NCBI RefSeq assembly: GCF_009931435.1
Contig: NZ_CP043414.1
DNA length: 64,000 nt
Source: Escherichia coli
Lineage (GTDB): Bacteria > Pseudomonadota > Gammaproteobacteria > Enterobacterales > Enterobacteriaceae
Reading direction: 5' to 3' (one strand)
How positions within the stretch are numbered: position 1 is the stretch's first letter; every line of letters begins with the position of its first letter. Positions 408-18,298 of the stretch are shown here, one piece after another. The translations under genes were made by a program, and so were the position numbers. The notes below the pieces were generated by a model. It saw only the letters and a program-made list of their open reading frames with translations, did no database searches and was not told the origin of the DNA.

Positions 408-2687
408 ATGGATGACCAGTTAAAACAAAGTGCACTTGATTTCCATGAATTTCCAGTTCCAGGGAAAATCCAGGTTTCTCCAACCAAGCCTCTGGCAACG
501 CAGCGCGATCTGGCGCTGGCCTACTCACCAGGCGTTGCCGCACCTTGTCTTGAAATCGAAAAAGACCCGTTAAAAGCCTACAAATATACCGCTCGTGGTA
601 ACCTGGTGGCGGTGATCTCTAACGGTACGGCGGTGCTGGGGTTAGGCAACATTGGCGCGCTGGCAGGCAAACCGGTGATGGAAGGCAAGGGCGTTCTGTT
701 TAAGAAATTCGCCGGGATTGATGTATTTGACATTGAAGTTGATGAACTTGACCCGGACAAATTTATTGAAGTTGTCGCTGCGCTCGAACCGACCTTCGGC
801 GGCATCAACCTCGAAGACATTAAAGCGCCAGAATGTTTCTATATTGAACAGAAACTGCGCGAGCGGATGAATATTCCAGTATTCCACGACGATCAGCACG
901 GCACGGCAATTATCAGCACTGCAGCCATCCTCAACGGATTGCGCGTGGTGGAGAAAAACATCTCCGACGTGCGGATGGTGGTTTCCGGCGCGGGTGCAGC
1001 AGCAATTGCCTGTATGAACCTGCTGGTGGCGCTGGGGCTGCAAAAACATAACATCGTGGTTTGTGATTCAAAAGGCGTTATCTATCAGGGCCGTGAGCCA
1101 AATATGGCGGAAACCAAAGCCGCATATGCGGTGGTAGATGACGGCAAACGTACCCTCGATGATGTAATTGAAGGCGCGGATATTTTCCTGGGCTGTTCCG
1201 GCCCGAAAGTGCTGACCCAGGAAATGGTTAAGAAAATGGCTCGTGCGCCGATGATCCTGGCGCTTGCGAACCCGGAACCAGAAATTCTGCCGCCGCTGGC
1301 GAAAGAAGTGCGTCCGGATGCCATCATCTGTACCGGCCGTTCCGACTACCCGAACCAGGTTAATAACGTGCTTTGCTTCCCATTCATCTTCCGTGGCGCG
1401 TTGGACGTTGGTGCAACTGCCATCAACGAGGAAATGAAACTGGCGGCGGTACGCGCGATTGCAGAACTGGCCCATGCGGAACAGAGCGAAGTCGTTGCTT
1501 CGGCGTATGGCGATCAAGATCTGAGCTTCGGCCCGGAATACATCATTCCAAAACCGTTTGATCCGCGTTTGATCGTTAAGATCGCTCCTGCGGTCGCTAA
1601 AGCGGCGATGGAGTCGGGTGTGGCGACGCGTCCGATTGCTGATTTCGACGTCTACATCGACAAGCTGACTGAGTTCGTTTACAAAACCAACCTGTTTATG
1701 AAGCCGATTTTCTCCCAGGCCCGCAAAGCGCCGAAGCGCGTTGTTTTACCGGAAGGGGAAGAGGCACGCGTTCTGCATGCTACTCAGGAACTGGTGACTC
1801 TGGGACTGGCGAAACCGATCCTTATCGGTCGTCCGAACGTGATCGAAATGCGCATTCAAAAACTGGGCTTGCAGATCAAAGCGGGCGTTGATTTTGAGAT
1901 CGTCAATAACGAATCCGATCCGCGTTTTAAAGAATACTGGACCGAATACTTCCAGATCATGAAGCGCCGTGGTGTAACTCAGGAGCAGGCGCAGCGGGCA
2001 CTGATCAGTAACCCGACAGTGATCGGCGCGATCATGGTTCAGCGTGGCGAAGCCGATGCAATGATTTGCGGTACGGTGGGCGATTATCATGAACACTTCA
2101 GCGTGGTGAAAAATGTCTTTGGTTATCGCGATGGCGTTCACACCGCAGGCGCAATGAACGCGCTGCTATTGCCGAGTGGTAACACTTTTATTGCCGATAC
2201 CTACGTCAATGACGAGCCAGACGCAGAAGAGTTGGCGGAGATCACCTTGATGGCGGCAGAAACTGTTCGTCGTTTTGGTATTGAGCCGCGTGTGGCTCTG
2301 TTGTCACACTCCAACTTTGGTTCTTCTGACTGCCCGTCGTCGAGCAAAATGCGTCAAGCGCTGGAACTGGTCAGAGAGCGTGCGCCAGAACTGATGATTG
2401 ATGGTGAAATGCACGGCGATGCAGCGCTGGTGGAAGCGATTCGCAGCGATCGTATGCCGGACAGCCCTTTGAAAGGTTCCGCCAATATTCTGGTGATGCC
2501 GAACATGGAAGCTGCCCGTATTAGTTACAACTTACTGCGCGTTTCCAGCTCGGAAGGTGTGACTGTCGGTCCGGTGCTGATGGGTGTGGCGAAACCGGTT
2601 CACGTGTTAACACCAATCGCATCCGTACGTCGTATCGTCAACATGGTGGCGCTGGCCGTGGTTGAAGCGCAAACCCAACCGCTGTAA
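408..2687 (+). CDS. maeB: NADP-dependent malic enzyme with C-terminal phosphotransacetylase-like domain
   Basis: 759 aa ORF; malic enzyme N-terminal domain and PTA-like C-terminal domain recognisable in translation. Confidence 0.93.
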
Positions 2688-2705
2688 TTCATTCTTAACT
2701 CTCAC

Positions 2706-2738
2706 GCTTACCCTGAATATTCAGGGTAAGCGGTTTTA
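2706..2738 (+). terminator. intrinsic terminator downstream of maeB
   Basis: Inverted repeat gcttaccctgaa/tat/tcagggtaagc followed by ggtttt, 19 nt after the maeB stop codon. Confidence 0.6.
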
Positions 2739-2739
2739 C

Positions 2740-2978
2740 TGCAATATATTAGTAAAGCTTATTACTAAGTTTTCGAGTAATAAAAAAGCAGCATATAAAC
2801 TATCTCGATATTATTTTATTTATATTCATGCGTCGCATATGAAAGTTTATTCATAACAGTAAATATCTCTCCATTCTTAGTGATCTATCTCACCTTTTAA
2901 ACGCGCTTGCCGAATTTTGTTATTTACTCTGACGAAAAATTGTCACGATACACGAAAGTTTTTCACAGGCGGCGACTC
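2740..2978 (+). promoter_or_regulatory. AT-rich region upstream of eutS, expected position of main eut operon promoter
   Basis: AT-rich 240 bp between the maeB terminator and eutS start; individual -35/-10 or EutR site not resolved. Confidence 0.3.
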
Positions 2979-3314
2979 ATGGATAAAGAACGCATCATTC
3001 AGGAATTTGTGCCCGGCAAACAGGTCACGCTGGCGCATCTCATCGCGCATCCCGGCGAGGAACTGGCGAAGAAAATCGGCGTTCCGGATGCGGGCGCAAT
3101 CGGCATTATGACGCTAACTCCCGGCGAAACGGCGATGATCGCCGGTGATTTAGCGCTGAAAGCTGCCGATGTGCATATCGGTTTCCTCGACCGTTTTAGC
3201 GGCGCACTGGTGATTTATGGTTCGGTGGGCGCAGTAGAAGAAGCGTTATCACAAACCGTCAGCGGTTTAGGACGCTTATTAAATTATACGCTGTGTGAAA
3301 TGACCAAAAGTTAA
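2979..3314 (+). CDS. eutS: ethanolamine utilisation microcompartment shell protein EutS
   Basis: 111 aa from internal ATG at 2979 ([10 protein letters not shown]...); BMC-domain shell protein; first gene of eut cluster. Confidence 0.88.
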
Positions 3315-3326
3315 TACGAGGCATTC

Positions 3327-3806
3327 ATGAAACGAATTGCGTTTGTGGGTGTCGTCGGGGCAGGAAAAACAACGTTATTTAATGCGTTGCAGGGGAATTA
3401 TACCCTCGCCAGAAAAACACAGGCCGTGGAATTTAATGATAAGGGCGATATTGATACGCCGGGTGAATATTTTAGCCATCCCCGCTGGTATCACGCCTTA
3501 ATTACCACGCTACAGGATGTGGACATGCTGATTTATGTCCACGGCGCGAATGACCCGGAAAGCCGATTGCCTGCCGGGTTGCTGGATATTGGTGCCAGCA
3601 AACGGCAAATCGCCGTCATCAGTAAAACGGACATGCCGGATGCTGACGTCGCAGCAACGCGAAAGTTATTGCTTGAAACTGGTTTTGAAGAGCCGATTTT
3701 CGAGCTAAACAGCCACGACCCGCAAAGCGTGCAGCAACTGGTGAATTATCTGGCATCTCTCACCGAACAGGAGGAAGCAGGTGAAAAAACTCATCACAGC
3801 GAATGA
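3327..3806 (+). CDS. eutP: ethanolamine utilisation GTPase/acetate kinase-like protein EutP
   Basis: 159 aa; P-loop GVVGAGKTT near N-terminus; eut operon position. Confidence 0.88.
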   Translation: MKRIAFVGVVGAGKTTLFNALQGNYTLARKTQAVEFNDKGDIDTPGEYFSHPRWYHALITTLQDVDMLIYVHGANDPESRLPAGLLDIGASKRQIAVISKTDMPDADVAATRKLLLETGFEEPIFELNSHDPQSVQQLVNYLASLTEQEEAGEKTHHSE

Positions 3807-4482
3807 TATTCGTGAAGCACATGCGCGCGGCGAACAGGCAATGTCTGTGGTTCTGCGCGCCAGCATTATTACCCCGGAAGCCCGCGAAGTGGCGGACTTG
3901 CTGGGGTTTACCATCACCGAATGCACTGAATCGACGCCAGTAGCGGCATCTGTTCCCGTCAGCGTGCCTGCCGATAAAACTGAAAGCCAGCGTATCCGCG
4001 AAACCATCATCGCCCAGCTGCCGGAAGGCCAGTTTACCGAAAGCCTGGTCGCGCAGCTGATGGAAAAAGTGATGAAGGAAAAACAGTCGCTGGAGCAGGG
4101 GGCAATGCAGCCGAGTTTTAAATCGGTGACCGGCAAAGGCGGCATCAAAGTTATTGATGGCAGCAGCGTGAAGTTTGGTCGTTTCGATGGCGCGGAACCG
4201 CACTGCGTAGGCTTGACTGATCTCGTGACCGGAGACGACGGCAGCAGCATGGCCGCCGGTTTTATGCAGTGGGAGAACGCCTTCTTCCCGTGGACCCTGA
4301 ACTACGACGAAATCGACATGGTACTGGAAGGGGAGCTTCATGTTCGCCATGAAGGCGAAACCATGATCGCCAAAGCGGGCGACGTGATGTTTATCCCGAA
4401 AGGCTCCAGCATCGAATTTGGTACGACATCCAGCGTGAAATTCCTGTATGTCGCCTGGCCGGCTAACTGGCAATCCCTATGA
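3781..4482 (+). CDS. eutQ: ethanolamine utilisation cupin-domain protein EutQ
   Basis: 233 aa ORF overlapping the eutP 3' end by 26 nt; operon position. Confidence 0.85.
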   Translation: MKKLITANDIREAHARGEQAMSVVLRASIITPEAREVADLLGFTITECTESTPVAASVPVSVPADKTESQRIRETIIAQLPEGQFTESLVAQLMEKVMKEKQSLEQGAMQPSFKSVTGKGGIKVIDGSSVKFGRFDGAEPHCVGLTDLVTGDDGSSMAAGFMQWENAFFPWTLNYDEIDMVLEGELHVRHEGETMIAKAGDVMFIPKGSSIEFGTTSSVKFLYVAWPANWQSL

Positions 4483-5282
4483 AAGATTTCATCACCGAAG
4501 CATGGCTAAGAGCGAACCATACGCTCAGCGAAGGCGCAGAGATCCATCTCCCTGCGGACAGTCGCCTGACGCCCTCTGCCCGGGAGTTACTGGAAAGCCG
4601 CCATCTGCGCATCAAGTTTATTGACGAGCAGGGCCGCCTGTTTGTTGACGATGAACAGCAGCAGCTACAGCCCGTTCACGTGCTGACCAGTAGTGATGAA
4701 CATCCGCAGGCGTGCTGCGAACTGTGTCACCAGCCAGTGGCGAAAAAGCCGGACACGCTGACTCACCTGTCGGCGGAAAAAATGGTCGCCAAAAGCGATC
4801 CGCGCCTGGGTTTTCGCGCTGTTCTCGACAGCACCATTGCGCTGGTAGTGTGGCTGCAAATTGAACTGACAGAACCGTGGCAGCCGTGGCTGGCGGATAT
4901 CCGTTCGCGTCTTGGCAACATTATGCGTGCCGATGTGTTGGGCGAACCGCTGGGCTGCCAGGCGATTGTCGGGTTTTCTGACGAAGATCTGCATCGACTT
5001 TCTCACCAGCCACTACGTTATCTCGACCACGATCATCTGGTGCCGGAAGCCAGCCACGGACGTGATGCGGCGTTGCTGAATCTGCTACGCACCAAAGTGC
5101 GGGAAACCGAAACCGTAGCGGCGCAGGTGTTTATCACCCGCAGTTTTGAAGTATTACGCCCGGACATCTTACAGGCGCTGAACCGCCTTTCCAGCACGGT
5201 CTACGTGATGATGATTTTGAGCGTAACGAAGCAGCCGCTAACGGTGAAACAGATCCAACAACGACTGGGAGAGACGCAATGA
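4479..5282 (+). CDS. eutT: ethanolamine utilisation cob(I)alamin adenosyltransferase EutT
   Basis: 267 aa; 4-nt start/stop overlap with eutQ and eutD; operon position. Confidence 0.88.
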
Positions 5283-6295
5283 TTATTGAACGTTGTCGTG
5301 AACTGGCGTTGCGAGCGCCCGCCAGAGTAGTTTTTCCGGATGCGTTAGATCAACGTGTGCTGAAAGCTGCGCAATATTTACATCAACAAGGTCTGGCAAC
5401 GCCCATTCTGGTCGCCAATCCGTTTGAACTTCGTCAGTTTGCGCTCAGCCACGGCGTGGCGATGGACGGGCTACTGGTGATTGATCCTCATAGCAACCTC
5501 GCAATGCGGGAAGAATTTGCTCATCGCTGGCTGGCCCGCGCGGGCGAAAAAACGCCGCCGGATGCGCTGGAAAAACTTACCGATCCGCTGATGTTCGCCG
5601 CCGCAATGGTCAGCGCCGGTAAAGCGGATGTCTGTATCGCGGGCAACCTCTCTTCCACGGCGAATGTGCTGCGTGCCGGATTACGCATTATCGGCTTGCA
5701 GCAAGGCTGTAAAACGCTCTCCTCCATTTTCCTGATGCTGCCACAGTACAGCGGTCCAGCGTTGGGCTTTGCCGATTGCAGCGTAGTGCCACAGCCGACG
5801 GCGGCACAACTGGCGGATATCGCGCTTGCCAGCGCCGAAACCTGGCGAGCCATCACCGGAGAAGAGCCGCGGGTGGCGATGTTGTCGTTCTCCAGTAACG
5901 GCAGCGCCCGTCACCCCTGCGTTGCCAACGTCCAGCAAGCGACAGAAATCGTCCGTGAGCGCGCACCGCAGCTGGTCGTCGATGGCGAGTTGCAGTTTGA
6001 CGCCGCCTTTGTGCCAGAAGTGGCGGCGCAAAAAGCGCCAGCCAGCCCGCTACAGGGCAAAGCCAATGTGATGGTTTTTCCGTCGCTGGAGGCGGGAAAT
6101 ATTGGCTACAAAATCGCACAACGACTTGGCGGATATCGTGCCGTCGGGCCATTGATACAAGGACTTGCCGCGCCGATGCACGATCTTTCTCGTGGTTGTA
6201 GCGTGCAGGAAATTATCGAGCTGGCGCTGGTGGCAGCTGTGCCGCGTCAGACAAAAGTGAACCGCGAAAGCAGTTTACAAACACTGGTTGAATGA
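5279..6295 (+). CDS. eutD: phosphotransacetylase EutD
   Basis: 338 aa; PTA family sequence; operon position. Confidence 0.9.
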
Positions 6296-6333
6296 ACGGT
6301 CCCGTTCTGGACCCCTATAAAGAGGAAAACACA

Positions 6334-6627
6334 ATGGAAGCATTAGGAATGATCGAAACCCGGGGCCTGGTTGCACTGATTGAGGCTTCTGACGCGATGG
6401 TGAAAGCTGCGCGCGTCAAGCTGGTTGGTGTTAAGCAGATTGGCGGCGGCCTGTGTACTGCCATGGTTCGTGGTGATGTTGCAGCCTGTAAAGCCGCAAC
6501 CGATGCCGGTGCCGCAGCGGCACAGCGTATCGGTGAACTGGTATCCGTACATGTTATTCCGCGTCCGCACGGCGATCTGGAAGAGGTCTTCCCGATCGGC
6601 CTGAAAGGCGATAGCAGCAACCTGTAA
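6334..6627 (+). CDS. eutM: microcompartment shell protein EutM (BMC-H)
   Basis: 97 aa from ATG at 6334 ([26 protein letters not shown]...), canonical BMC domain; RBS agagga at 6321-6326. Confidence 0.9.
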
Positions 6628-6733
6628 TCACCCTGTGTGACGTCGATCCGGGCGTCACGCTCTCTCCTTTTTCAGTTTACCTTCCGCGGAGGGTAGGGGG
6701 AGCTTTTACCTGAAATACGCCACGGAGGCGGGT

Positions 6734-7021
6734 ATGAAACTGGCAGTCGTCACTGGACAAATTGTTTGTACCGTACGCCATCACGGACTGGCGCATGACA
6801 AATTGCTGATGGTGGAAATGATTGATCCACAAGGTAATCCTGACGGGCAATGCGCCGTCGCCATCGACAATATTGGCGCGGGAACCGGGGAGTGGGTGTT
6901 GCTGGTGAGTGGCAGTTCCGCCCGCCAGGCGCATAAAAGCGAAACGTCACCGGTCGATCTGTGCGTAATTGGCATTGTCGATGAGGTGGTCTCTGGCGGT
7001 CAGGTAATTTTCCACAAATAA
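6734..7021 (+). CDS. eutN: microcompartment vertex protein EutN (BMV/pentamer family)
   Basis: 95 aa; EutN/CcmL-like sequence; operon position. Confidence 0.88.
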   Translation: MKLAVVTGQIVCTVRHHGLAHDKLLMVEMIDPQGNPDGQCAVAIDNIGAGTGEWVLLVSGSSARQAHKSETSPVDLCVIGIVDEVVSGGQVIFHK

Positions 7022-7032
7022 GGCAGAACATC

Positions 7033-8436
7033 ATGAATCAACAGGATATTGAACAGGTGGTGAAAGCGGTACTGCTGAAAATGCAAAGCAGTGACACGCC
7101 GCCCGCCGCCGTTCATGAGATGGGCGTTTTTGCTTCCCTGGATGACGCCGTTGCGGCAGCCAAAATTGCCCAGCAAGGGTTAAAGAGCGTGGCAATGCGC
7201 CAGTTAGCCATTGCCGCTATTCGTGAAGCAGGCGAAAAACACGCCAGAGATTTAGCGGAACTTGCCGTCAGTGAAACGGGTATGGGCCGCGTAGAAGATA
7301 AATTTGCCAAAAACGTCGCTCAGGCACGCGGTACGCCAGGCGTTGAGTGCCTCTCTCCACAGGTGCTGACCGGTGACAACGGCCTGACTTTAATTGAAAA
7401 CGCGCCCTGGGGCGTGGTGGCTTCGGTGACGCCTTCCACTAACCCGGCGGCAACCGTAATTAATAACGCCATCAGCCTGATTGCCGCGGGCAACAGCGTC
7501 ATTTTTGCCCCGCATCCGGCGGCGAAAAAAGTCTCTCAACGGGCTATTACGCTGCTCAACCAGGCGATTGTTGCCGCAGGCGGGCCGGAAAACTTACTGG
7601 TTACTGTGGCCAATCCGGATATCGAAACCGCGCAACGTTTGTTCAAGTTCCCGGGTATCGGCCTGCTGGTGGTGACCGGCGGCGAAGCGGTAGTGGAAGC
7701 GGCGCGTAAACACACCAATAAACGTCTGATTGCCGCAGGCGCTGGCAACCCACCGGTAGTGGTGGATGAAACCGCCGACCTCGCCCGTGCCGCTCAGTCT
7801 ATCGTCAAAGGCGCTTCTTTCGATAACAACATCATTTGTGCCGATGAAAAGGTGCTGATTGTTGTTGATAGCGTAGCCGATGAACTAATGCGTCTGATGG
7901 AAGGCCAGCATGCGGTGAAACTGACCGCAGAACAGGCACAGCAGTTACAACCGGTGTTGCTGAAAAATATCGATGAGCGCGGAAAAGGCACCGTCAGCCG
8001 TGACTGGGTGGGTCGCGATGCGGCGAAAATCGCGGCGGCAATCGGCCTGAACGTGCCGCAAGAAACGCGCTTGCTGTTTGTAGAAACCCCCGCAGAACAT
8101 CCGTTTGCCGTGACCGAACTGATGATGCCAGTGCTGCCGGTCGTGCGCGTCGCCAACGTGGCGGATGCCATTGCGCTGGCGGTGAAACTGGAAGGCGGTT
8201 GCCACCACACGGCGGCAATGCACTCGCGCAATATCGAGAACATGAACCAAATGGCGAACGCCATTGATACCAGTATTTTCGTTAAGAACGGACCGTGCAT
8301 TGCCGGGCTGGGGCTGGGCGGGGAAGGCTGGACCACGATGACCATCACCACGCCAACCGGTGAAGGGGTAACCAGCGCGCGTACGTTTGTCCGTCTGCGT
8401 CGCTGTGTATTAGTCGATGCGTTTCGCATTGTTTAA
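7033..8436 (+). CDS. eutE: CoA-acylating acetaldehyde dehydrogenase EutE
   Basis: 467 aa aldehyde dehydrogenase family ORF; operon position. Confidence 0.9.
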   Translation: MNQQDIEQVVKAVLLKMQSSDTPPAAVHEMGVFASLDDAVAAAKIAQQGLKSVAMRQLAIAAIREAGEKHARDLAELAVSETGMGRVEDKFAKNVAQARGTPGVECLSPQVLTGDNGLTLIENAPWGVVASVTPSTNPAATVINNAISLIAAGNSVIFAPHPAAKKVSQRAITLLNQAIVAAGGPENLLVTVANPDIETAQRLFKFPGIGLLVVTGGEAVVEAARKHTNKRLIAAGAGNPPVVVDETADLARAAQSIVKGASFDNNIICADEKVLIVVDSVADELMRLMEGQHAVKLTAEQAQQLQPVLLKNIDERGKGTVSRDWVGRDAAKIAAAIGLNVPQETRLLFVETPAEHPFAVTELMMPVLPVVRVANVADAIALAVKLEGGCHHTAAMHSRNIENMNQMANAIDTSIFVKNGPCIAGLGLGGEGWTTMTITTPTGEGVTSARTFVRLRRCVLVDAFRIV

Positions 8437-8446
8437 GGAGTAACCG

Positions 8447-9283
8447 ATGGCGCACGACGAACAATGGCTTACCCCGCGTCTGCAAACGGCGGCAACGCTG
8501 TGTAACCAGACGCCCGCCACCACGGAGTCTCCGTTGTGGTTAGGGGTGGATCTGGGCACCTGCGATGTGGTGTCGATGGTTGTCGACGGCGACGGTCAGC
8601 CGGTGGCGGTATGCCTCGACTGGGCCGATGTGGTCCGCGACGGCATCGTCTGGGATTTCTTCGGTGCAGTTACGATTGTTCGTCGCCATCTCGATACCCT
8701 CGAGCAGCAATTTGGTCGCCGTTTTAGCCGTGCGGCGACTTCATTTCCACCAGGTACGGATCCGCGTATTTCCATCAATGTGCTGGAGTCTGCCGGGCTG
8801 GAAGTGAGCCATGTGCTGGATGAGCCAACCGCAGTCGCGGATCTACTGCAACTGGACAACGCCGGTGTAGTGGATATTGGCGGCGGCACTACCGGAATTG
8901 CCATCGTGAAAAAGGGCAAGGTGACTTATTCAGCGGATGAAGCGACCGGCGGACATCACATTTCTCTGACTCTCGCCGGAAATCGCCGTATTTCGCTGGA
9001 AGAGGCAGAGCAGTACAAGCGCGGTCACGGTGACGAGATTTGGCCTGCGGTGAAGCCGGTGTACGAAAAAATGGCGGACATTGTTGCCCGGCATATTGAA
9101 GGGCAGGGCATTACTGATTTATGGCTGGCGGGCGGCTCCTGTATGCAACCGGGCGTGGCGGAACTGTTTTGCAAACAATTCCCGGCGTTACAGGTGCATC
9201 TACCGCAGCACAGTTTGTTTATGACCCCGCTGGCGATCGCCAGTAGCGGGCGAGAGAAAGCGGAGGGGATCTATGCAAAATGA
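8447..9283 (+). CDS. eutJ: ethanolamine utilisation chaperone-like protein EutJ (actin/Hsp70 fold)
   Basis: 278 aa; DLGTCDV and DIGGGTTG ATPase motifs. Confidence 0.88.
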   Translation: MAHDEQWLTPRLQTAATLCNQTPATTESPLWLGVDLGTCDVVSMVVDGDGQPVAVCLDWADVVRDGIVWDFFGAVTIVRRHLDTLEQQFGRRFSRAATSFPPGTDPRISINVLESAGLEVSHVLDEPTAVADLLQLDNAGVVDIGGGTTGIAIVKKGKVTYSADEATGGHHISLTLAGNRRISLEEAEQYKRGHGDEIWPAVKPVYEKMADIVARHIEGQGITDLWLAGGSCMQPGVAELFCKQFPALQVHLPQHSLFMTPLAIASSGREKAEGIYAK

Positions 9284-10460
9284 ATTGCAGACCGCGCTCT
9301 TTCAGGCGTTCGATACCCTGAATCTGCAACGGGTAAAAACATTTAGCGTTCCACCGGTGACGCTTTGCGGTCCGGGCGCGGTGAGCAGTTGCGGACAGCA
9401 AGCGCAAACGCGTGGGCTGAAACATCTGTTCGTGATGGCAGACAGCTTTTTGCATCAGGCAGGGATGACCGCCGGGCTGACGCGTAGCCTGGCCGTTAAA
9501 GGTATCGCCATGACGCTCTGGCCATGTCCGGTGGGCGAACCGTGCATCACTGACGTGTGTGCCGCCGTGGCGCAGTTGCGTGAATCAGGCTGTGATGGGG
9601 TGATCGCGTTTGGCGGTGGCTCGGTGCTGGATGCGGCAAAAGCCGTGGCGTTGCTGGTAACGAATCCCGATAGCACGCTGGCAGAAATGTCAGAAACCAG
9701 CGTTCTGCAACCGCGCCTGCCGTTGATTGCCATTCCAACTACCGCCGGAACCGGCTCTGAAACCACCAATGTAACGGTGATTATCGACGCGGTGAGCGGG
9801 CGCAAGCAGGTGTTAGCACATGCCTCGTTGATGCCGGATGTGGCGATTCTCGACGCCGCGCTGACCGAAGGTGTGCCGTCGCATGTCACGGCAATGACCG
9901 GTATCGACGCGTTAACTCATGCCATTGAAGCGTACAGCGCGCTGAACGCTACACCGTTTACAGACAGCCTGGCGATTGGCGCAATTGCGATGATTGGTAA
10001 ATCACTGCCGAAAGCAGTGGGTTACGGTCATGACCTTGCCGCGCGCGAGAGTATGTTGCTGGCTTCATGCATGGCGGGAATGGCATTTTCCAGTGCCGGA
10101 CTTGGGTTATGTCACGCGATGGCGCATCAGCCGGGGGCGGCGCTGCATATTCCGCACGGTCTGGCGAACGCCATGCTGCTGCCCACGGTGATGGAGTTTA
10201 ACCGGATGGTCTGTCGCGAACGGTTTAGTCAGATTGGTCGGGCGCTGCGAACTAAAAAATCCGACGATCGTGACGCTATTAACGCGGTAAGTGAGCTGAT
10301 TGCGGAAGTCGGGATTGGTAAACGACTGGGCGATGTTGGTGCGGCATCTGCGCATTACGGCGCATGGGCGCAGGCCGCGCTGGAAGATATTTGTCTGCGC
10401 AGCAACCCGCGTACCGCCAGCCTGGAGCAGATTGTCGGCTTGTACGCAGCGGCGCAATAA
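9273..10460 (+). CDS. eutG: iron-containing alcohol dehydrogenase EutG
   Basis: 395 aa Fe-ADH family ORF; operon position. Confidence 0.9.
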   Translation: MQNELQTALFQAFDTLNLQRVKTFSVPPVTLCGPGAVSSCGQQAQTRGLKHLFVMADSFLHQAGMTAGLTRSLAVKGIAMTLWPCPVGEPCITDVCAAVAQLRESGCDGVIAFGGGSVLDAAKAVALLVTNPDSTLAEMSETSVLQPRLPLIAIPTTAGTGSETTNVTVIIDAVSGRKQVLAHASLMPDVAILDAALTEGVPSHVTAMTGIDALTHAIEAYSALNATPFTDSLAIGAIAMIGKSLPKAVGYGHDLAARESMLLASCMAGMAFSSAGLGLCHAMAHQPGAALHIPHGLANAMLLPTVMEFNRMVCRERFSQIGRALRTKKSDDRDAINAVSELIAEVGIGKRLGDVGAASAHYGAWAQAALEDICLRSNPRTASLEQIVGLYAAAQ

Positions 10461-10676
<216 letters not shown>

Positions 10677-11903
10677 ATGGGAATTAACGAAATCATCATG
10701 TACATCATGATGTTCTTTATGCTGATAGCTGCCGTAGACAGGATCTTGTCGCAGTTCGGCGGTTCGGCTCGTTTCCTCGGTAAGTTTGGTAAAAGTATCG
10801 AAGGATCGGGCGGCCAGTTCGAAGAAGGCTTTATGGCAATGGGCGCACTGGGCCTGGCGATGGTCGGTATGACCGCACTGGCACCAGTACTGGCCCACGT
10901 ACTTGGGCCGGTGATTATCCCGGTTTACGAAATGCTCGGCGCAAACCCGTCAATGTTCGCTGGAACACTGCTGGCGTGCGACATGGGCGGCTTCTTCCTC
11001 GCGAAAGAGCTGGCGGGCGGCGATGTGGCAGCGTGGCTATACTCTGGGTTAATTCTCGGATCGATGATGGGGCCAACGATTGTGTTTTCCATTCCGGTGG
11101 CGCTCGGCATTATCGAACCTTCTGACCGTCGTTATCTGGCGCTCGGCGTGCTGGCGGGCATTGTGACCATTCCGATTGGCTGTATTGCTGGTGGTCTGGT
11201 GGCTATGTACTCCGGTGTGCAGATCAACGGTCAGCCGGTGGAATTCACCTTTGCCCTGATCCTGATGAACATGATCCCGGTACTTATCGTTGCGGTGCTG
11301 GTGGCGCTGGGGCTGAAATTCATCCCGGAAAAAATGATCAACGGCTTCCAGATCTTCGCCAAATTCCTCGTTGCATTGATCACCCTCGGTCTTGCTGCCG
11401 CGGTAGTGAAATTCCTCCTTGGCTGGGAACTGATCCCCGGTCTGGATCCTATCTTTATGGCCCCTGGCGATAAACCCGGTGAAGTGATGCGCGCCATTGA
11501 AGTTATCGGTTCTATCTCCTGCGTGCTGTTAGGGGCGTATCCGATGGTGCTGCTGCTGACCCGCTGGTTTGAAAAACCGCTGATGAGCGTCGGTAAAGTG
11601 CTGAATATGAACAACATCGCGGCAGCCGGCATGGTGGCAACGCTTGCCAACAACATCCCGATGTTCGGCATGATGAAGCAGATGGATACCCGCGGCAAAG
11701 TGATCAACTGTGCCTTCGCCGTTTCCGCTGCTTTCGCCCTGGGTGACCATTTAGGCTTCGCCGCTGCCAACATGAACGCCATGATCTTCCCGATGATTGT
11801 CGGCAAGTTGATCGGCGGCGTTACGGCGATTGGCGTGGCGATGATGCTGGTGCCAAAAGAAGACGCGACCGCGGCTAAAACCGAAGCGGAGGCACAATCG
11901 TGA
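10677..11903 (+). CDS. eutH: ethanolamine permease EutH
   Basis: 408 aa polytopic membrane protein; operon position. Confidence 0.9.
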   Translation: MGINEIIMYIMMFFMLIAAVDRILSQFGGSARFLGKFGKSIEGSGGQFEEGFMAMGALGLAMVGMTALAPVLAHVLGPVIIPVYEMLGANPSMFAGTLLACDMGGFFLAKELAGGDVAAWLYSGLILGSMMGPTIVFSIPVALGIIEPSDRRYLALGVLAGIVTIPIGCIAGGLVAMYSGVQINGQPVEFTFALILMNMIPVLIVAVLVALGLKFIPEKMINGFQIFAKFLVALITLGLAAAVVKFLLGWELIPGLDPIFMAPGDKPGEVMRAIEVIGSISCVLLGAYPMVLLLTRWFEKPLMSVGKVLNMNNIAAAGMVATLANNIPMFGMMKQMDTRGKVINCAFAVSAAFALGDHLGFAAANMNAMIFPMIVGKLIGGVTAIGVAMMLVPKEDATAAKTEAEAQS

Positions 11904-13303
11904 ACACTCGCCAGCTACTGAGCGTCGGTATCGATATCGGCACTACCACCACCCAGGTGATCTTCTCCCACCTGGAGCTGGTTAACCGTGCGGCGGTGTC
12001 GCAGGTGCCGCGCTACGAATTCATCAAACGCGAAATTAGCTGGCAAAGCCCGGTGTTCTTTACCCCTGTCGATAAACTGGGCGGTTTAAAAGAAGCGGAA
12101 CTGAAAACCTTAATCCTCGAGCAATATCAGGCTGCGGGCATTGCGCCGGAAAGCGTTGATTCTGGTGCCATCATCATCACCGGTGAAAGCGCGAAAACCC
12201 GCAATGCTCGCCCGGCGGTGATGACGCTCTCCCAGTCGCTTGGCGATTTTGTCGTCGCCAGCGCCGGGCCGCATCTCGAATCCGTGATCGCCGGTCACGG
12301 TGCCGGGGCGCAAACCCTTTCTGAACAACGGCTGTGTCGGGTACTGAATATCGATATTGGCGGTGGCACCGCGAACTACGCTTTGTTCGATGCCGGAAAA
12401 ATCAGCGGCACCGCTTGCCTCAACGTCGGCGGTCGCCTGCTGGAAACCGACAGCCAGGGGCGCGTGGTTTACGCTCATAAACCGGGGCAGATGATAGTGG
12501 ATGAGTGCTTCGGTGCAGGCACTGACGCCCGTTCGCTGACCGGCGCGCAGCTGGTGCAGGTTACCCGGCGGATGGCGGAACTGATTGTCGAAGTGATTGA
12601 CGGAACGCTCTCGCCGCTCGCGCAGGCATTGATGCAAACCGGTTTGCTGCCCGCAGGTGTTACGCCCGAAATCATTACGCTTTCTGGCGGCGTGGGCGAA
12701 TGTTATCGCCACCAGCCCGCCGACCCGTTCTGTTTTGCCGATATCGGCCCGCTTCTGGCAACGGCGCTGCATGAGCATCCTCGTCTGCGTGAGATGAACG
12801 TGCAGTTTCCGGCGCAAACCGTACGCGCCACGGTGATTGGCGCGGGTGCACATACCCTTTCGCTCTCTGGCAGCACAATCTGGCTGGAGGGCGTACAACT
12901 GCCGCTGCGCAATTTGCCGGTGGCGATCCCAATTGATGAAACGGATCTGGTGAGTGCCTGGCAACAGGCGCTGATTCAGCTGGATCTTTGCCCCAAAACT
13001 GACGCGTACGTGCTGGCGCTTCCCGCCTCGCTGCCTGTGCGTTACGCCGCGGTACTGACGGTCATCAACGCGCTGGTCGATTTCGTCGCGCGTTTTCCGA
13101 ATCCGCATCCCCTGCTGGTGGTGGCCGGGCAGGATTTTGGTAAAGCTCTGGGCATGTTGTTGCGCCCACAGCTACAACAACTCCCGTTGGCAGTCATTGA
13201 CGAAGTGATTGTCCGCGCGGGGGACTATATCGACATTGGTACGCCTCTTTTTGGCGGATCGGTTGTGCCGGTGACGGTGAAATCACTCGCATTTCCTTCC
13301 TGA
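11900..13303 (+). CDS. eutA: ethanolamine ammonia-lyase reactivase EutA
   Basis: 467 aa; operon position; followed 11 nt later by eutB with no intervening element. Confidence 0.9.
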   Translation: MNTRQLLSVGIDIGTTTTQVIFSHLELVNRAAVSQVPRYEFIKREISWQSPVFFTPVDKLGGLKEAELKTLILEQYQAAGIAPESVDSGAIIITGESAKTRNARPAVMTLSQSLGDFVVASAGPHLESVIAGHGAGAQTLSEQRLCRVLNIDIGGGTANYALFDAGKISGTACLNVGGRLLETDSQGRVVYAHKPGQMIVDECFGAGTDARSLTGAQLVQVTRRMAELIVEVIDGTLSPLAQALMQTGLLPAGVTPEIITLSGGVGECYRHQPADPFCFADIGPLLATALHEHPRLREMNVQFPAQTVRATVIGAGAHTLSLSGSTIWLEGVQLPLRNLPVAIPIDETDLVSAWQQALIQLDLCPKTDAYVLALPASLPVRYAAVLTVINALVDFVARFPNPHPLLVVAGQDFGKALGMLLRPQLQQLPLAVIDEVIVRAGDYIDIGTPLFGGSVVPVTVKSLAFPS

Positions 13304-13314
13304 GGGAACGACTT

Positions 13315-14676
13315 ATGAAACTAAAGACCACATTGTTCGGCAATGTATATCAGTTTAAGGATGTAAAAGAGGTGCTGGCTAAAGCCAACGAACTGCGTTC
13401 GGGGGATGTGCTGGCGGGCGTTGCAGCGGCAAGCTCACAGGAGCGCGTGGCTGCAAAGCAGGTGTTGTCGGAAATGACCGTAGCGGACATCCGCAATAAT
13501 CCGGTGATTGCCTATGAAGATGACTGCGTGACGCGACTGATTCAGGACGACGTTAACGAAACGGCCTACAACCAGATTAAAAACTGGAGCATCAGCGAAC
13601 TGCGTGAGTATGTGCTGAGTGATGAAACCAGCGTTGACGACATTGCTTTTACCCGCAAAGGGCTGACCTCGGAAGTGGTCGCGGCGGTAGCGAAGATTTG
13701 CTCTAACGCGGACCTGATCTACGGCGCGAAGAAAATGCCGGTAATCAAAAAGGCCAATACAACTATTGGTATTCCGGGCACCTTCAGCGCCCGTTTGCAG
13801 CCAAACGATACCCGCGACGACGTGCAAAGTATCGCCGCGCAAATCTACGAAGGGCTTTCTTTCGGGGTGGGCGATGCGGTGATCGGCGTTAACCCGGTGA
13901 CTGACGACGTGGAAAACTTAAGCCGCGTGCTGGATACCATCTATGGCGTGATCGACAAATTCAACATTCCAACCCAGGGCTGCGTGCTGGCGCACGTCAC
14001 CACCCAGATCGAAGCGATTCGTCGCGGTGCGCCGGGCGGGCTGATTTTCCAGAGTATCTGCGGCAGTGAAAAAGGGCTGAAAGAGTTTGGCGTAGAGCTG
14101 GCGATGCTCGATGAAGCACGCGCAGTGGGCGCAGAGTTTAACCGTATCGCCGGGGAAAACTGCCTCTACTTCGAAACCGGGCAGGGTTCTGCGCTATCGG
14201 CGGGCGCTAACTTCGGTGCAGATCAGGTAACGATGGAAGCGCGTAACTACGGGCTGGCACGTCATTACGATCCGTTTATCGTCAACACCGTAGTGGGCTT
14301 TATTGGGCCAGAGTATCTCTACAACGACCGGCAGATTATCCGTGCGGGCTTAGAAGATCACTTTATGGGCAAACTGAGCGGCATTTCTATGGGCTGTGAC
14401 TGCTGCTACACCAACCACGCTAACGCTGACCAGAACCTCAACGAAAACCTGATGATCCTGCTCGCCACCGCAGGCTGCAACTACATCATGGGGATGCCGC
14501 TGGGCGATGACATCATGCTCAACTATCAGACTACGGCCTTCCACGACACCGCCACTGTGCGTCAGTTACTCAACCTGCGCCCGTCACCGGAGTTTGAACG
14601 CTGGCTGGAAAGCATGGGCATTATGGCAAACGGTCGCCTGACCAAACGGGCGGGCGATCCGTCACTGTTCTTCTGA
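13315..14676 (+). CDS. eutB: ethanolamine ammonia-lyase large subunit EutB
   Basis: 453 aa; RBS gaggga upstream; operon position. Confidence 0.92.
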   Translation: MKLKTTLFGNVYQFKDVKEVLAKANELRSGDVLAGVAAASSQERVAAKQVLSEMTVADIRNNPVIAYEDDCVTRLIQDDVNETAYNQIKNWSISELREYVLSDETSVDDIAFTRKGLTSEVVAAVAKICSNADLIYGAKKMPVIKKANTTIGIPGTFSARLQPNDTRDDVQSIAAQIYEGLSFGVGDAVIGVNPVTDDVENLSRVLDTIYGVIDKFNIPTQGCVLAHVTTQIEAIRRGAPGGLIFQSICGSEKGLKEFGVELAMLDEARAVGAEFNRIAGENCLYFETGQGSALSAGANFGADQVTMEARNYGLARHYDPFIVNTVVGFIGPEYLYNDRQIIRAGLEDHFMGKLSGISMGCDCCYTNHANADQNLNENLMILLATAGCNYIMGMPLGDDIMLNYQTTAFHDTATVRQLLNLRPSPEFERWLESMGIMANGRLTKRAGDPSLFF

Positions 14677-14696
14677 TGACGCGGAGATAACACATC

Positions 14697-15584
14697 ATGG
14701 ATCAAAAACAGATTGAAGAAATTGTACGCAGCGTGATGGCGTCAATGGGACAAGCGGCCCCCGCGCCGTCAGAAGCAAAATGCGCCACTACCACCTGTGC
14801 GGCACCGGTGACCTCGGAAAGCTGCGCGCTGGATTTAGGTTCCGCGGAAGCAAAAGCGTGGATTGGCGTTGAAAACCCGCATCGCGCAGACGTATTAACA
14901 GAACTGCGCCGCAGCACCGTGGCTCGCGTCTGTACCGGTCGTGCTGGTCCGCGTCCGCGTACCCAGGCGCTGTTGCGTTTCCTGGCCGATCACTCTCGTT
15001 CGAAAGACACCGTACTGAAAGAAGTGCCGGAAGAGTGGGTGAAAGCGCAGGGCTTGCTGGAAGTCCGCTCTGAAATTAGCGACAAAAATCTCTATCTGAC
15101 TCGCCCGGATATGGGCCGCCGCTTGTGTGCAGAGGCTGTTGAAGCGCTGAAAGCGCAGTGTGTTGCCAATCCGGACGTACAGGTGGTTATTTCCGATGGT
15201 CTGTCTACTGATGCGATCACCGTGAACTATGAAGAGATTCTGCCACCGCTGATGGCGGGCCTGAAACAGGCCGGGTTGAAAGTCGGCACACCGTTCTTTG
15301 TGCGTTACGGTCGCGTGAAGATTGAAGATCAGATTGGCGAACTTCTTGGCGCGAAAGTGGTGATCCTGCTGGTGGGTGAACGTCCGGGGTTGGGGCAGTC
15401 AGAAAGTCTCTCCTGCTACGCCGTTTACTCGCCGCGTATGGCAACCACCGTTGAGGCCGACCGTACCTGTATCTCTAACATTCACCAGGGCGGCACGCCG
15501 CCGGTTGAAGCCGCAGCCGTCATTGTGGATTTGGCGAAACGTATGCTGGAGCAGAAAGCATCCGGCATCAACATGACCCGATAA
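14697..15584 (+). CDS. eutC: ethanolamine ammonia-lyase small subunit EutC
   Basis: 295 aa; operon position. Confidence 0.92.
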
Positions 15585-15593
15585 GGAGGCATC

Positions 15594-16253
15594 ATGCCAG
15601 CTTTAGATTTGATTCGACCGTCGGTAACCGCCATGCGGGTGATTGCCTCTGTTAACGCCGAATTTGCGCGTGAACTGAAATTGCCGCCGCATATTCGTAG
15701 CCTCGGGCTGATTTCTGCTGATTCCGATGACGTCACCTACATTGCGGCTGACGAAGCGACCAAGCAGGCGATGGTTGAAGTCGTGTATGGTCGCTCGCTG
15801 TATGCGGGAGCCGCACACGGCCCGTCACCGACTGCCGGTGAAGTGCTGATTATGCTCGGGGGGCCAAACCCGGCGGAAGTGCGTGCTGGTCTGGATGCGA
15901 TGGTTGCGCATATTGAAAATGGCGCGGCTTTCCAGTGGGCTAACGACGCGCAAGATACGGCATTCCTGGCACATGTAGTTTCGCGTACCGGTTCTTATCT
16001 CTCATCAACCGCCGGGATCACGCTTGGCGATCCGATGGCGTATTTGGTGGCACCGCCGCTGGAAGCGACCTACGGCATTGATGCAGCGTTGAAATCTGCC
16101 GACGTGCAGCTGGTGACCTATGTCCCGCCACCGTCTGAAACCAACTACTCGGCAGCATTTTTAACCGGTAGCCAGGCCGCGTGTAAAGCAGCCTGTAACG
16201 CCTTTACCGATGCAGTGCTGGAAATCGCGCGTAATCCAATCCAGCGTGCGTAA
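15594..16253 (+). CDS. eutL: microcompartment shell protein EutL (tandem BMC)
   Basis: 219 aa; operon position. Confidence 0.9.
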
Positions 16254-16265
16254 CGGAGGTTGCCG

Positions 16266-16766
16266 ATGATCAATGCACTGGGATTGCTGGAAGTGGACGG
16301 CATGGTCGCCGCGATAGATGCAGCTGATGCCATGCTCAAAGCAGCTAACGTTCGTCTGCTCAGTCACGAAGTGCTTGACCCTGGTCGCCTAACGCTGGTG
16401 GTGGAAGGCGATCTGGCGGCGTGTCGTGCGGCGCTGGACGCAGGTTGTGCTGCCGCGATGCGTACCGGGCGTGTCATCAGCCGTAAGGAGATCGGTCGGC
16501 CAGACGATGACACCCAGTGGCTGGTTACTGGCTTTAACCGCCAGCCGAAGCAATCCGTAAAGGAACCCGACGCGCCAGTTATCGTCGCGGAATCTGCTGA
16601 CGAGTTGTTGGCGCTGTTAACATCAGTACGTCAGGGAATGACGGCAGGAGAAGTGGCTGCCCACTTTGGCTGGCCGCTGGAAAAAGCCAGAAATGCGCTC
16701 GAACAGCTCTTTTCTGCCGGGACGTTACGTAAACGCAGTAGTCGTTATCGTCTCAAGCCCCATTAA
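16266..16766 (+). CDS. eutK: microcompartment shell protein EutK (BMC domain plus C-terminal helix-turn-helix-like tail)
   Basis: 166 aa from ATG at 16266 (MINALGLLEVDGMVAAIDAADAM...), RBS ggagg at 16255-16259. Confidence 0.88.
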   Translation: MINALGLLEVDGMVAAIDAADAMLKAANVRLLSHEVLDPGRLTLVVEGDLAACRAALDAGCAAAMRTGRVISRKEIGRPDDDTQWLVTGFNRQPKQSVKEPDAPVIVAESADELLALLTSVRQGMTAGEVAAHFGWPLEKARNALEQLFSAGTLRKRSSRYRLKPH

Positions 16767-16811
16767 CCTGTCGGAGGTGCCGGGTGTCCTACAACACCCG
16801 GCATTAACATC

Positions 16812-17864
16812 ATGAAAAAGACCCGTACAGCCAATTTGCACCATCTTTATCATGAACCCTTACCCGAAAACCTGAAGCTCACGCCGAAGGTCGAAGTGGA
16901 TAATGTTCATCAACGGCAAACAACGGATGTCTATGAACATGCTTTGACGATTACCGCCTGGCAGCAGATTTACGATCAGCTGCATCCGGGCAAGTTTCAT
17001 GGTGAATTTACGGAAATTCTACTCGATGATATTCAGGTTTTTCGTGAATACACCGGTCTGGCGCTGCGTCAGTCGTGCCTGGTCTGGCCGAACTCGTTCT
17101 GGTTTGGCATTCCGGCGACACGCGGTGAGCAGGGATTTATCGGTTCGCAATGTCTGGGAAGCGCAGAAATAGCGACGCGCCCTGGAGGAACCGAGTTTGA
17201 ATTAAGTACGCCGGACGATTACACGATCCTTGGCGTGGTGCTTTCTGAAGATGTCATCACCCGTCAGGCTAACTTTTTGCATAACCCGGAAAGGGTGCTG
17301 CATATGTTACGTAACCAGTCGGCGCTGGAAGTGAAAGAGCAGCATAAAGCCGCGCTGTGGGGCTTTGTCCAACAGGCTCTGGCGACATTTTGCGAGAACC
17401 CGGAAAATCTCCATCAGCCTGCAGTGCGAAAAGTGCTGGGGGATAATTTGCTAATGGCGATGGGGGCGATGCTGGAAGAAGCGCAGCCAATGGTGACGGC
17501 GGAAAGTATCAGCCACCAGAGTTACCGTCGCTTGTTGACCCGCGCGCGTGAATATGTGCTGGAGAATATGTCCGAACCGGTAACCGTGCTGGATTTGTGC
17601 AATCAACTGCATGTCAGCCGCCGCACGCTACAAAACGCGTTTCACGCTCTTTTAGGCATTGGCCCAAACGCGTGGCTGAAACGCATTCGCCTGAACGCCG
17701 TGCGCCGCGAACTGATAAGCCCGTGGTCGCAAAGTACAACGGTCAAAGATGCCGCCATGCAGTGGGGATTCTGGCATCTGGGGCAATTCGCCACGGATTA
17801 CCAGCAACTGTTTGCCGAGAAGCCGTCTCTGACGCTACATCAGCGGATGCAGGAACTGGAGTGA
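16812..17864 (+). CDS. eutR: AraC-family transcriptional activator of the eut operon
   Basis: 350 aa; AraC-type HTH in C-terminal region; last gene of the cluster. Confidence 0.9.
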
Positions 17865-17940
17865 GGGTGAGGGCCGGATGAGGATGGTGTTTGATCCGGT
17901 CCATAGTGAAGTTACAAATTACGTTGAATTGCTATGTATT

Positions 17941-18258: not shown

Positions 18259-18298
18259 TCTTAAATGCTCCCGTGAGCAAACTGGCGCAAAATAATTT

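Follow-up and report, generated by a model that had tools for sequence, protein, structure and literature searches.

The eut operon and the eutM-eutN junction

The window, i.e., the whole stretch of 64,000 nucleotides that was analyzed, carries a complete Escherichia eut operon on its + strand, with maeB followed by eutS-P-Q-T-D-M-N-E-J-G-H-A-B-C-L-K-R. The genes are tightly packed: 12 of the 16 eut junctions are overlaps or gaps of at most 20 nt, and an earlier note on this DNA, which held that most eut genes overlap or lie less than 25 nt apart, is right about these 12, with eutD-eutM (38 nt), eutK-eutR (45 nt), eutM-eutN (106 nt) and eutG-eutH (216 nt) as the exceptions. The eutG-eutH gap is a REP cluster with a 73-bit Rfam match to naRNA4. 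The eutM-eutN gap is the second largest in the operon; the 106-bp spacer that the note placed at 6628-6733 is delimited precisely by the eutM stop codon (TAA, 6625-6627) and the eutN ATG at 6734, and the same 106-nt gap separates the two genes in the RefSeq annotation of a K-12-type genome. The features of the region are collected in Table 1. The longest open reading frame of eutM begins at 6292, upstream of the true ATG at 6334.

The spacer alone is found as a full-length copy in 5406 of 5426 complete E. coli genomes, at 95-99% identity and at a median of one place per genome, and the annotation under these matches is "none". The 730 bases around the spacer also find a match in 5406 of the 5426 genomes (95-99% identity), and the eutE-eutG segment of the window reaches no more than 98.3% identity with any of them, which marks the source as a somewhat divergent Escherichia lineage. 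The spacer is out of frame with eutN; Salmonella differs, and the annotation of S. Typhi has treated both genes as one ORF.

Table 1. Features of the eutM-eutN region, in positions of the 64,000-nt window
Feature	Position	Strand	Description
eutM CDS	6334-6627	+	97 aa, BMC-H major shell protein; translation agrees with RefSeq EutM
eutM-eutN intercistronic spacer	6628-6733	+	106 nt, single-copy
Hairpin 1	6635-6660	+	Predicted stem 6635-6644/6651-6660, loop 6645-6650 (GAUCCG), dG -16.2 kcal/mol
Pyrimidine/U tract UCUCUCCUUUUU	6661-6672	+	Directly 3' of hairpin 1; tail score 2.0
Hairpin 2, composite	6662-6702	+	Predicted dG about -16.5 to -19 kcal/mol
UUUU tail of hairpin 2, then conserved single-stranded segment ACCUGAAAUA	6704-6717	+	
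eutN translation-initiation region	6718-6733	+	SD GGAGG at 6724-6728, within small predicted hairpin GCC-ACGGA-GGC (6719-6729)
eutN CDS	6734-7021	+	95 aa, pentameric vertex protein, EutN_CcmL family, PF03319
eutN internal segment, codons 11-20	6766-6793	+	Predicted pairing with eutN SD/start codon (6718-6736), probabilities 0.7-0.87
eutR gene	16812-17864		At operon end

Two predicted hairpins in the spacer

The inverted repeat gtgacg-tcgatccggg-cgtcac, on which the earlier note based its interest in the spacer, is present at 6637-6658 as the core of a longer hairpin, and the RNA secondary-structure prediction that the note proposed yields two hairpins, the second of which it had not mentioned. 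Hairpin 1 begins 7 nt past the eutM stop codon and has a 10-bp stem, with six G-C and two G-U pairs, that contains a conserved 8-bp core, GUGACGYC/GRCGUCAC, at 6637-6644/6651-6658. Hairpin 2 is assembled from an outer helix, CUCUCCU/GGGGGAG (6662-6668/6696-6702), and an inner helix, UACCUUC/GAGGGUA (6678-6684/6689-6695), which is capped by a CGCG loop (6685-6688); a U-rich internal loop of 9 nt (6669-6677) lies on the 5' side. The two hairpins share sequence: CUCUCCU (6662-6668), within the UCUCUCCUUUUU tract that trails hairpin 1, doubles as the 5' strand of the outer helix of hairpin 2. UUUUACCUGAAAUA follows on the 3' side of hairpin 2 and leads to the eutN Shine-Dalgarno (SD) sequence, GGAGG, and UACCUGAA keeps a fixed distance of about 29-30 nt to the eutN ATG.

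By local folding energy, hairpin 1 is among the top 0.1% of 30-nt windows on the + strand, a set of 15 sites in 64 kb that includes several gene-end terminator-like hairpins or REPs and others that lie within coding sequence. The window contains a single occurrence of the motif GTGACGYC-N(3-30)-GRCGTCAC, where 0 would be expected. Given its composition, the region as a whole folds with unexceptional energy (z = -1.24 relative to dinucleotide shuffles, -2.1 relative to mononucleotide ones), and conservation and covariation are therefore the stronger evidence. An Rfam cmscan of positions 2500-18500 at E <= 1 gave no match in the spacer, only the REP-derived naRNA4 between eutG and eutH and a chance 5.8S match; the class-A spacers (defined below) of loci L006 and L036 also gave no match in an Rfam scan.

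Two other readings of the spacer are rejected. An internal promoter is contradicted by a consensus scan, which found none in the spacer on either strand, and by RNA levels in strain LF82, which fall, not rise, across it. A small ORF or a read-through extension of EutM is contradicted by the only frame at hand, 19 codons starting with GTG and lacking an SD, and by loop indels in Citrobacter that break any frame.

Distribution of spacer types

A scan for EutN in one genome per species produced 48 loci, to which eight further lineages were added through EutN homologues. In all 52 (44 + 8) proteobacterial junctions examined, with eutM and eutN adjacent, the genes are at least 50 nt apart, and these spacers are mostly more folded than their shuffles (median z -2.4). 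Class A spacers carry the GUGACGYC-loop-GRCGUCAC hairpin, one per locus and invariably at the eutM-eutN junction, where it starts 5-9 nt past the eutM stop. They are found in Escherichia species, the C. freundii complex, other Citrobacter, K. spallanzanii, Phytobacter, Buttiauxella, Entomohabitans, Yokenella and one further lineage; Yokenella has a compensatory variant, AUGACGCC/GGCGUCAU, in which a G-C pair is changed to A-U and which lies outside the exact-pattern search. Class B spacers have a canonical REP/BIME at the junction, with sub-threshold Rfam naRNA4 matches in L017, L028 and L035, and are found in Salmonella, K. pneumoniae, K. oxytoca, K. michiganensis, K. grimontii, C. koseri, C. 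amalonaticus, C. sedlakii, Pseudocitrobacter and Pluralibacter. Other G+C-rich hairpins occupy the junction in Intestinirhabdus, ESL0689, Pseudomonas and Rhodocyclaceae.

A covariance model, trained on 15 sequences from Escherichia, Citrobacter, Klebsiella and Phytobacter, found full-length matches at the eutM-eutN junction only, with E values of 5e-10 to 3e-6 in Buttiauxella, 3e-7 in Entomohabitans, 1e-5 in L059 and 5e-3 in L060; the remaining low-E matches are on the reverse strand over the same spacers, and the model has no match elsewhere in the 64-kb window. In L059-L061, where EutN is 69-75% identical, the stem sequences differ (e.g., GGGGAUUUUUUUACCC in L061) and the architecture is kept: hairpin 1, here GCGUGGYG/CRCCACGC, comes first; a CUCCC/GGGAG outer helix then encloses a U-rich internal loop and an apical hairpin, the inner helix of hairpin 2 being GCCGCC/GGCGGC, and a U-run comes last.

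The idea that the element is a dispersed repeat is rejected: it is single-copy in E. coli genomes and its motif is unique in the window. Nor is a structured gap past the major shell gene a general rule, since pduA and pduB overlap by 4 nt in Salmonella-type pdu loci.

Conservation and covariation

Across the compared loci, which are phylogenetically non-independent, the spacer changes more slowly than synonymous positions of its neighbors. Within Escherichia species, identity is 97-98% in the class-A spacer vs. 82-83% at the 4-fold degenerate sites of eutM, eutN and eutE; between Escherichia and Citrobacter or K. spallanzanii, the respective values are 79-85% and 53-61%. With the sequences aligned by MAFFT, pairing in the two-hairpin structure holds for 91% of cells, compared to 45-59% in slid controls, double-sided changes are seen in 11 pairs, compared to two, and the covariation score is 0.211, compared to 0.055-0.107. 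An alignment fitted to the model has 97% of cells paired and double changes in 16 of 21 pairs, values to be read with its bias towards the structure and its inclusion of one weak reverse-strand match.

The two hairpins differ in how they are conserved. Hairpin 2 has compensatory changes in four of its seven inner and four of its seven outer pairs. The hairpin 1 core is paired in 22/22 sequences, with seven of the eight core pairs invariant across six genera, and its loop is anything between 6 and about 22 nt long, with the longest in Citrobacter. Single-stranded parts are also constrained: CTCTCTCC and TTTT are near-invariant in A1/A3, as are CUCUCUCC, AGGGGGAG and UUUUACCUGAAAUA within class A, and the 6704-6717 segment is invariant in Escherichia, Citrobacter, K. 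spallanzanii and Phytobacter. TACCTGAA is present in three of four Buttiauxella and in Entomohabitans too, and the counterpart of the conserved segment is UUUUACCUGAAAU in L059 and UUUUUUUACCC in L061.

Two tertiary or long-range contacts were considered. Pairing of UUACCUGA (6706-6713) with UCAGGUAA near the 3' end of eutN is rejected: the partner is also found in class B and is missing in some class A loci. A candidate pseudoknot, UUUCA/UGAAA, is paired in 79% vs. 21-50% in slid controls and consists of only five A/U-rich pairs.

Judged by these comparisons, the spacer forms a genuine RNA (or single-strand) structure under selection, which is single-copy and has no Rfam match. The near-invariance of the hairpin 1 core from Escherichia to Buttiauxella and Entomohabitans exceeds what a simple structural hairpin should need, which hints at a factor that recognizes the folded stem; the constraint is not absolute, given that more distant lineages use another stem sequence.

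Intrinsic-terminator features

Each hairpin has the G+C-rich stem-loop of an intrinsic terminator (Table 1), and each is followed by a short U-rich tail. The UCUCUCCUUUUU tail of hairpin 1, with 4 U in the first 8 nt, scores 2.0, against 2.9-3.9 for the clear terminators in the window; the hairpin 2 tail, UUUUACC, scores 3.2 and lies behind a stem interrupted by the 9-nt internal loop. The d'Aubenton-Carafa terminator score is negative for both hairpins, but it is poorly calibrated with modern energies, because a hairpin just 3' of the maeB stop has the same tail score (2.0) as hairpin 1; tails were therefore compared within the window. Among orthologues, GUUUUU follows hairpin 1 in L059, and seven U (UUUUUUU) follow hairpin 2 in L061. 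One E. coli Term-seq data set, from media in which eut was presumably uninduced, lists no sense-strand 3' end in the spacer. The same data set has a weak antisense transcript end inside eutM. With such tails, the two hairpins would be leaky terminators at best.

RNA and protein levels across the junction

The only per-gene RNA-seq table found is that of strain LF82, and its numbers are to be read with its low read depth and unverified strandedness. RPKM values in minimal medium/bile salts are 108/357 for eutD, 55/177 for eutM, 5/62 for eutN, 14/149 for eutE, 13/147 for eutJ, 35/168 for eutG and 106/514 for eutH (PMC6379400). RNA falls from eutM to eutN, the step-down over the spacer being 4-11-fold uninduced and 1.2-2.9-fold induced (PMC6379400), and climbs again only past the REP-filled eutG-eutH gap. 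Such a profile is the signature expected of partial termination and/or of a stabilized upstream fragment. Past the spacer, eutE RNA is two to three times eutN RNA, and segment-specific decay of a poorly translated cistron fits this better than simple termination does.

Protein levels diverge further. In proteomics of E. coli K-12 on ethanolamine, with EutQ set to 100, EutD is at 10, EutM at 96, EutN at 1 and EutE at 27 (PMC11334477). EutE is thus about 27 times as abundant as EutN, even though eutE lies just downstream of eutN. Since eutE also exceeds eutN at the RNA level, attenuation alone cannot explain low EutN, and a low level that is specific to the vertex protein therefore needs a translational component.

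The eutN translation-initiation region

The predicted probability that the eutN SD region is unpaired, 0.09, is the lowest among the 17 eut genes of the window; opening costs least at the eutM initiation region (5.7 kcal/mol). Over 40 loci, the median predicted opening cost is 14.6 kcal/mol for eutN, 7.4 for eutM and 8.1 for eutE; the cost for eutN exceeds that for eutM in 40/40 loci and that for eutE in 39/40, with both spacer classes represented. Predicted accessibility in the window follows protein abundance, with Spearman coefficients of 0.61 and -0.66 (n = 12). The predicted pairing of the SD and AUG with codons 11-20 of eutN (Table 1) was not recovered across taxa by RNAalifold, and invariant columns account for most of its apparent conservation.

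The SD context, CACGGAGG, fits the CANGGANG consensus of CsrA, with most of the match being the SD itself; ACGGA is in the loop of the SD hairpin GCC-ACGGA-GGC, and a second GGA is at 6689-6691. The CANGGANG-type match is missing in Buttiauxella, Yokenella and Entomohabitans, and no link of CsrA to this site was found in the literature.

Relation to known intercistronic elements

REP/BIME intercistronic elements, e.g., those of malE-malF and hisJ-hisQ, are textbook stabilizers of the mRNA upstream of them, which are thought to block 3'-5' exonucleases and, in part, to attenuate transcription; the work is said to go back to Newbury and Higgins in 1987-88 and Espeli in 2001. The eutM-eutN element resembles them in placing stable stem-loops in a gap just 3' of the more highly expressed cistron, and REP/BIMEs occupy this exact junction in Salmonella, most Klebsiella, several Citrobacter, Pseudocitrobacter and Pluralibacter. 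The window element differs in that it has no REP consensus (of the GCCGGATG...CTTATCCGGCCTAC type) and no naRNA4/REP match, whereas the consensus is present in class-B spacers; it is also single-copy, with a two-hairpin architecture of its own, whereas REPs come in many dispersed copies.

In the rplL-rpoB intercistronic attenuator of E. coli, a terminator-like hairpin in a long gap lowers distal transcription, so that unequal products share a promoter. The eutM-eutN junction has the same long gap and terminator-like hairpin, but it has two hairpins in tandem, its U-tracts are weaker than those of the clear terminators in the window, and termination here is putative. The 'decay terminator' hairpins of the puf operon of Rhodobacter capsulatus and the 3' stem-loop of papA in the pap pilus operon offer another parallel, with a hairpin directly past the gene of the most abundant structural subunit and more abundant upstream mRNA. 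The structural feature shared by stabilizers of the mal, puf and pap type, a stable conserved stem-loop directly 3' of the more abundant cistron, is present here. The parallel with puf and papA has a limit: eutD RNA is at least as abundant as eutM RNA, and the stabilized unit would therefore be eutS-eutM, not eutM alone.

Cis-RNA control with two hairpins and terminators is also a property of Firmicute eut clusters, i.e., the ANTAR (EutV) dual-hairpin terminators and the B12 riboswitch/EutX RNA. The ANTAR target reportedly defined by Ramesh et al. in 2012 has two hairpins, each with a hexaloop in which A occupies position 1 and G position 4; the second hairpin overlaps a terminator, and a cognate EutV/EutW system belongs to it. 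The window element does not follow the hexaloop rule: loop 1 is GAUCCG (and grows to ~22 nt in Citrobacter) and loop 2 is the 4-nt CGCG. The operon is controlled by EutR rather than EutVW, and no Rfam family matches. No paper describing the eutM-eutN spacer was found in the literature, and the element is apparently undescribed, a new member of the well-known class of intra-operon RNA hairpins.

A combined model and its alternatives

The reading favored here, with middling confidence, is that the two-hairpin spacer combines a tandem leaky terminator with a 3'-end stabilizer and, in addition, uncouples eutN translation from eutM. At the hairpins, transcription would in part terminate intrinsically and 3'-to-5' exonucleases would be held up; RNAs or decay intermediates that end just past eutM would accumulate relative to eutN and the distal genes, and the eutS-eutM message would be raised relative to the distal genes. 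REP/BIME elements would fill the same role at the junction in Salmonella, Klebsiella and several Citrobacter. The long folded gap would part eutN from the heavy ribosome traffic on eutM and would stop ribosomes leaving eutM from melting the eutN structure and re-initiating; separated in this way, eutN would rely on initiation at its own start, a region with unusually strong predicted occlusion, and the occlusion would keep the vertex pentamer ~100-fold below the hexamer. We infer that termination or decay protection may occur at the hairpins and that the spacer may uncouple eutN translation, which would account for the gap being present throughout, in an operon whose other genes mostly overlap. 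The earlier note had proposed an internal attenuator or RNA-processing site that lowers the vertex protein relative to the major shell protein. Its proposal survives in part: a structured and selected element, the U-rich tails, the RNA drop in LF82 and the REP/BIME at the orthologous site agree with it, whereas the weak U-tracts do not, and the ~27-fold excess of EutE over EutN makes attenuation insufficient on its own for EutN.

The nearest alternatives are the two halves of the combined model, each taken alone. If the folded gap were a purely translational device, it would break coupling and keep the eutN ribosome-binding site occluded, perhaps with CsrA bound, and the RNA drop would follow from exposure to RNase E. 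The least accessible initiation region of the 17 eut genes, costlier to open than that of eutM in 40/40 loci and of eutE in 39/40, eutN RNA below that of both neighbors, and a gap of at least 50 nt kept at every examined eutM-eutN junction in an operon where most other genes overlap or nearly abut all speak for this; it would leave unexplained two specific U-tailed hairpins conserved right past the eutM stop, and the REPs that substitute for them. SD occlusion comes from energy predictions and has a weak consensus across taxa, and the CsrA part meets a CANGGANG match that is largely SD and is missing in Buttiauxella, Yokenella and Entomohabitans, with no CsrA data found; as a complete account, a translational device is rather doubtful. 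The converse, in which one or both hairpins are leaky Rho-independent terminators and set the lower level of eutN and the downstream genes through reduced read-through alone, is unlikely. The terminator-like shape, U-rich tails conserved past both hairpins, including in L059 and L061, the RNA drop in LF82 and a hairpin 1 tail that scores as high as that of the maeB-stop hairpin (2.0) are what it would predict, but EutE is 27 times EutN and eutE RNA two to three times eutN RNA with both genes downstream of the spacer, under induction the drop as far as eutE is no more than about 1.2-fold, and neither the weak U-tracts nor the large internal loop of hairpin 2 speaks for termination.

More elaborate and simpler readings are less probable still. 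The spacer could be a dedicated RNA 'stoichiometry valve', in which read-through past two weak terminators is coupled to eutM translation, perhaps with a factor on the core stem, and the hexamer:pentamer ratio is actively tuned; ribosome coupling enters this reading because hairpin 1 starts 5-9 nt past the stop, inside the footprint of the terminating ribosome, and the reading as a whole is quite improbable. A sequence-specific trans-acting factor that recognizes GUGACGYC/GRCGUCAC, be it a protein or RNase on the RNA stem or a protein on the DNA palindrome, would account for seven of eight core pairs being invariant in 22 sequences from six genera at which synonymous sites are near saturation, and a fixed stem around a loop of 6 to ~22 nt favors recognition of the folded RNA over that of two DNA half-sites. 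Distant lineages, however, keep the hairpin with another sequence, Yokenella has its compensatory G-C to A-U change, the rest of the window, the eutS promoter region included, lacks the motif, and no candidate factor was found, making such a factor very unlikely as the main explanation. That the spacer has no function at all, being a tolerated remnant, e.g., of an old insertion, at a site where hairpins and REPs accumulate, is already disfavored and has the smallest probability of any reading considered: REPs do colonize many intergenic gaps, including eutG-eutH, and the folding energy of the whole region is not extreme, but purifying selection is strong relative to synonymous sites, compensatory changes are seen in both hairpins and the architecture is retained where EutN is only 69-75% identical.

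Implications for shell stoichiometry

Microcompartment shells are built from thousands of hexamers and only about 60 pentamer subunits, and either too much or too little EutN alters the shape of the compartment. To our knowledge, how a ~100:1 ratio arises from adjacent genes under one promoter has had no explanation for Eut. A conserved cis-RNA element at the eutM-eutN junction offers a concrete, mutable handle on shell stoichiometry, and its replacement by unrelated REP hairpins in sister genera strengthens the case that the junction itself matters. Published synthetic Eut shell designs usually recombine ORFs and drop the native spacer, the loss of which calls for practical caution in such designs. 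The principle is otherwise a familiar one, intra-operon hairpins setting differential expression, and the finding is chiefly of interest for research on, and engineering of, microcompartment stoichiometry.

Divergence of the window and structure of its eutM-eutN spacer

Among 5426 complete E. coli genomes, the best identity to eutE-eutG of the window is 98.3%, and in 1141 records it lies at 90-95%. The eutM-eutN spacer, unlike eutE-eutG, holds at 95-99% in all those E. coli records. Judged by its sequence, the window's DNA looks like that of a divergent Escherichia lineage. Within the spacer, a candidate tertiary pairing would connect the internal loop of hairpin 2 with the conserved ACCUGAAA segment; 79% of cells are paired vs 21-50% in slid controls, the pairing being short and A/U-rich.

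In K-12, the junction is also touched by transcription from the opposite strand. For MG1655, published Term-seq data include a weak 3' end on the strand opposite eutM (2572217, + strand; Adams et al. 2021, PMC7815308, supplementary file 1), which indicates that an antisense transcript spans the eutM-eutN spacer region in K-12. A consensus scan for an antisense promoter found none.

Other spacers of the operon

Features of the eut operon in window coordinates
Feature	Position	Strand	Description
Antisense 3' end inside eutM	about 6560-6567	minus	Term-seq, PMC7815308
Candidate tertiary pairing UUUCA/UGAAA	6670-6674 with 6711-6715		5 bp
eutE-eutG	7033-10460		
eutG-eutH spacer	10461-10676		216 nt, packed with REP/BIME elements
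Rfam naRNA4 match	10515-10596		73 bits
eutK-eutR spacer	16767-16811		
Hairpin UGCCGGGUGU-CCUACA-ACACCCGGCA in eutK-eutR spacer	about 16776-16803		dG -21 to -23, very stable
eutR ATG	16812		

The eutG-eutH spacer carries additional, weaker copies of naRNA4. In published LF82 RNA-seq (minimal medium/bile salts), RNA levels show a renewed increase from eutG (35/168 RPKM) to eutH (106/514 RPKM; PMC6379400), which suggests that a promoter lies inside the operon or that the downstream segment is stabilised. The eutK-eutR hairpin stops 8 nt upstream of the eutR start codon, where an obvious Shine-Dalgarno sequence is absent, and the predicted cost of opening the initiation region is the highest in the operon at eutR (20.6 kcal/mol). 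This arrangement looks as if it gates the regulator gene, at the level of either translation or transcription.

Apparent replacement at the eutM-eutN junction

The eutM-eutN arrangement was rejected as a general shell-gene rule: in Salmonella-type pdu loci (L050-L053), the end of pduA and the start of pduB share 4 nt (3282-3285), leaving a Pdu microcompartment operon without a structured gap behind its first shell gene. At the eutM-eutN junction itself, the Salmonella spacer (L026, L034) is 111-112 nt long and contains a REP. In S. Typhi CT18 and Ty2 a single 690-bp eutM-eutN ORF is annotated across the spacer (PMC3548604), whereas the 106-nt spacer of the window is out of frame. K. oxytoca, K. 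michiganensis and K. grimontii (L028-L030) carry a BIME, apparently homologous to that of Salmonella, whereas K. spallanzanii (L042), from the same species complex, retains the class-A two-hairpin spacer. The presence of both types among such close relatives suggests that the spacer was replaced at this site via recombination or transfer.
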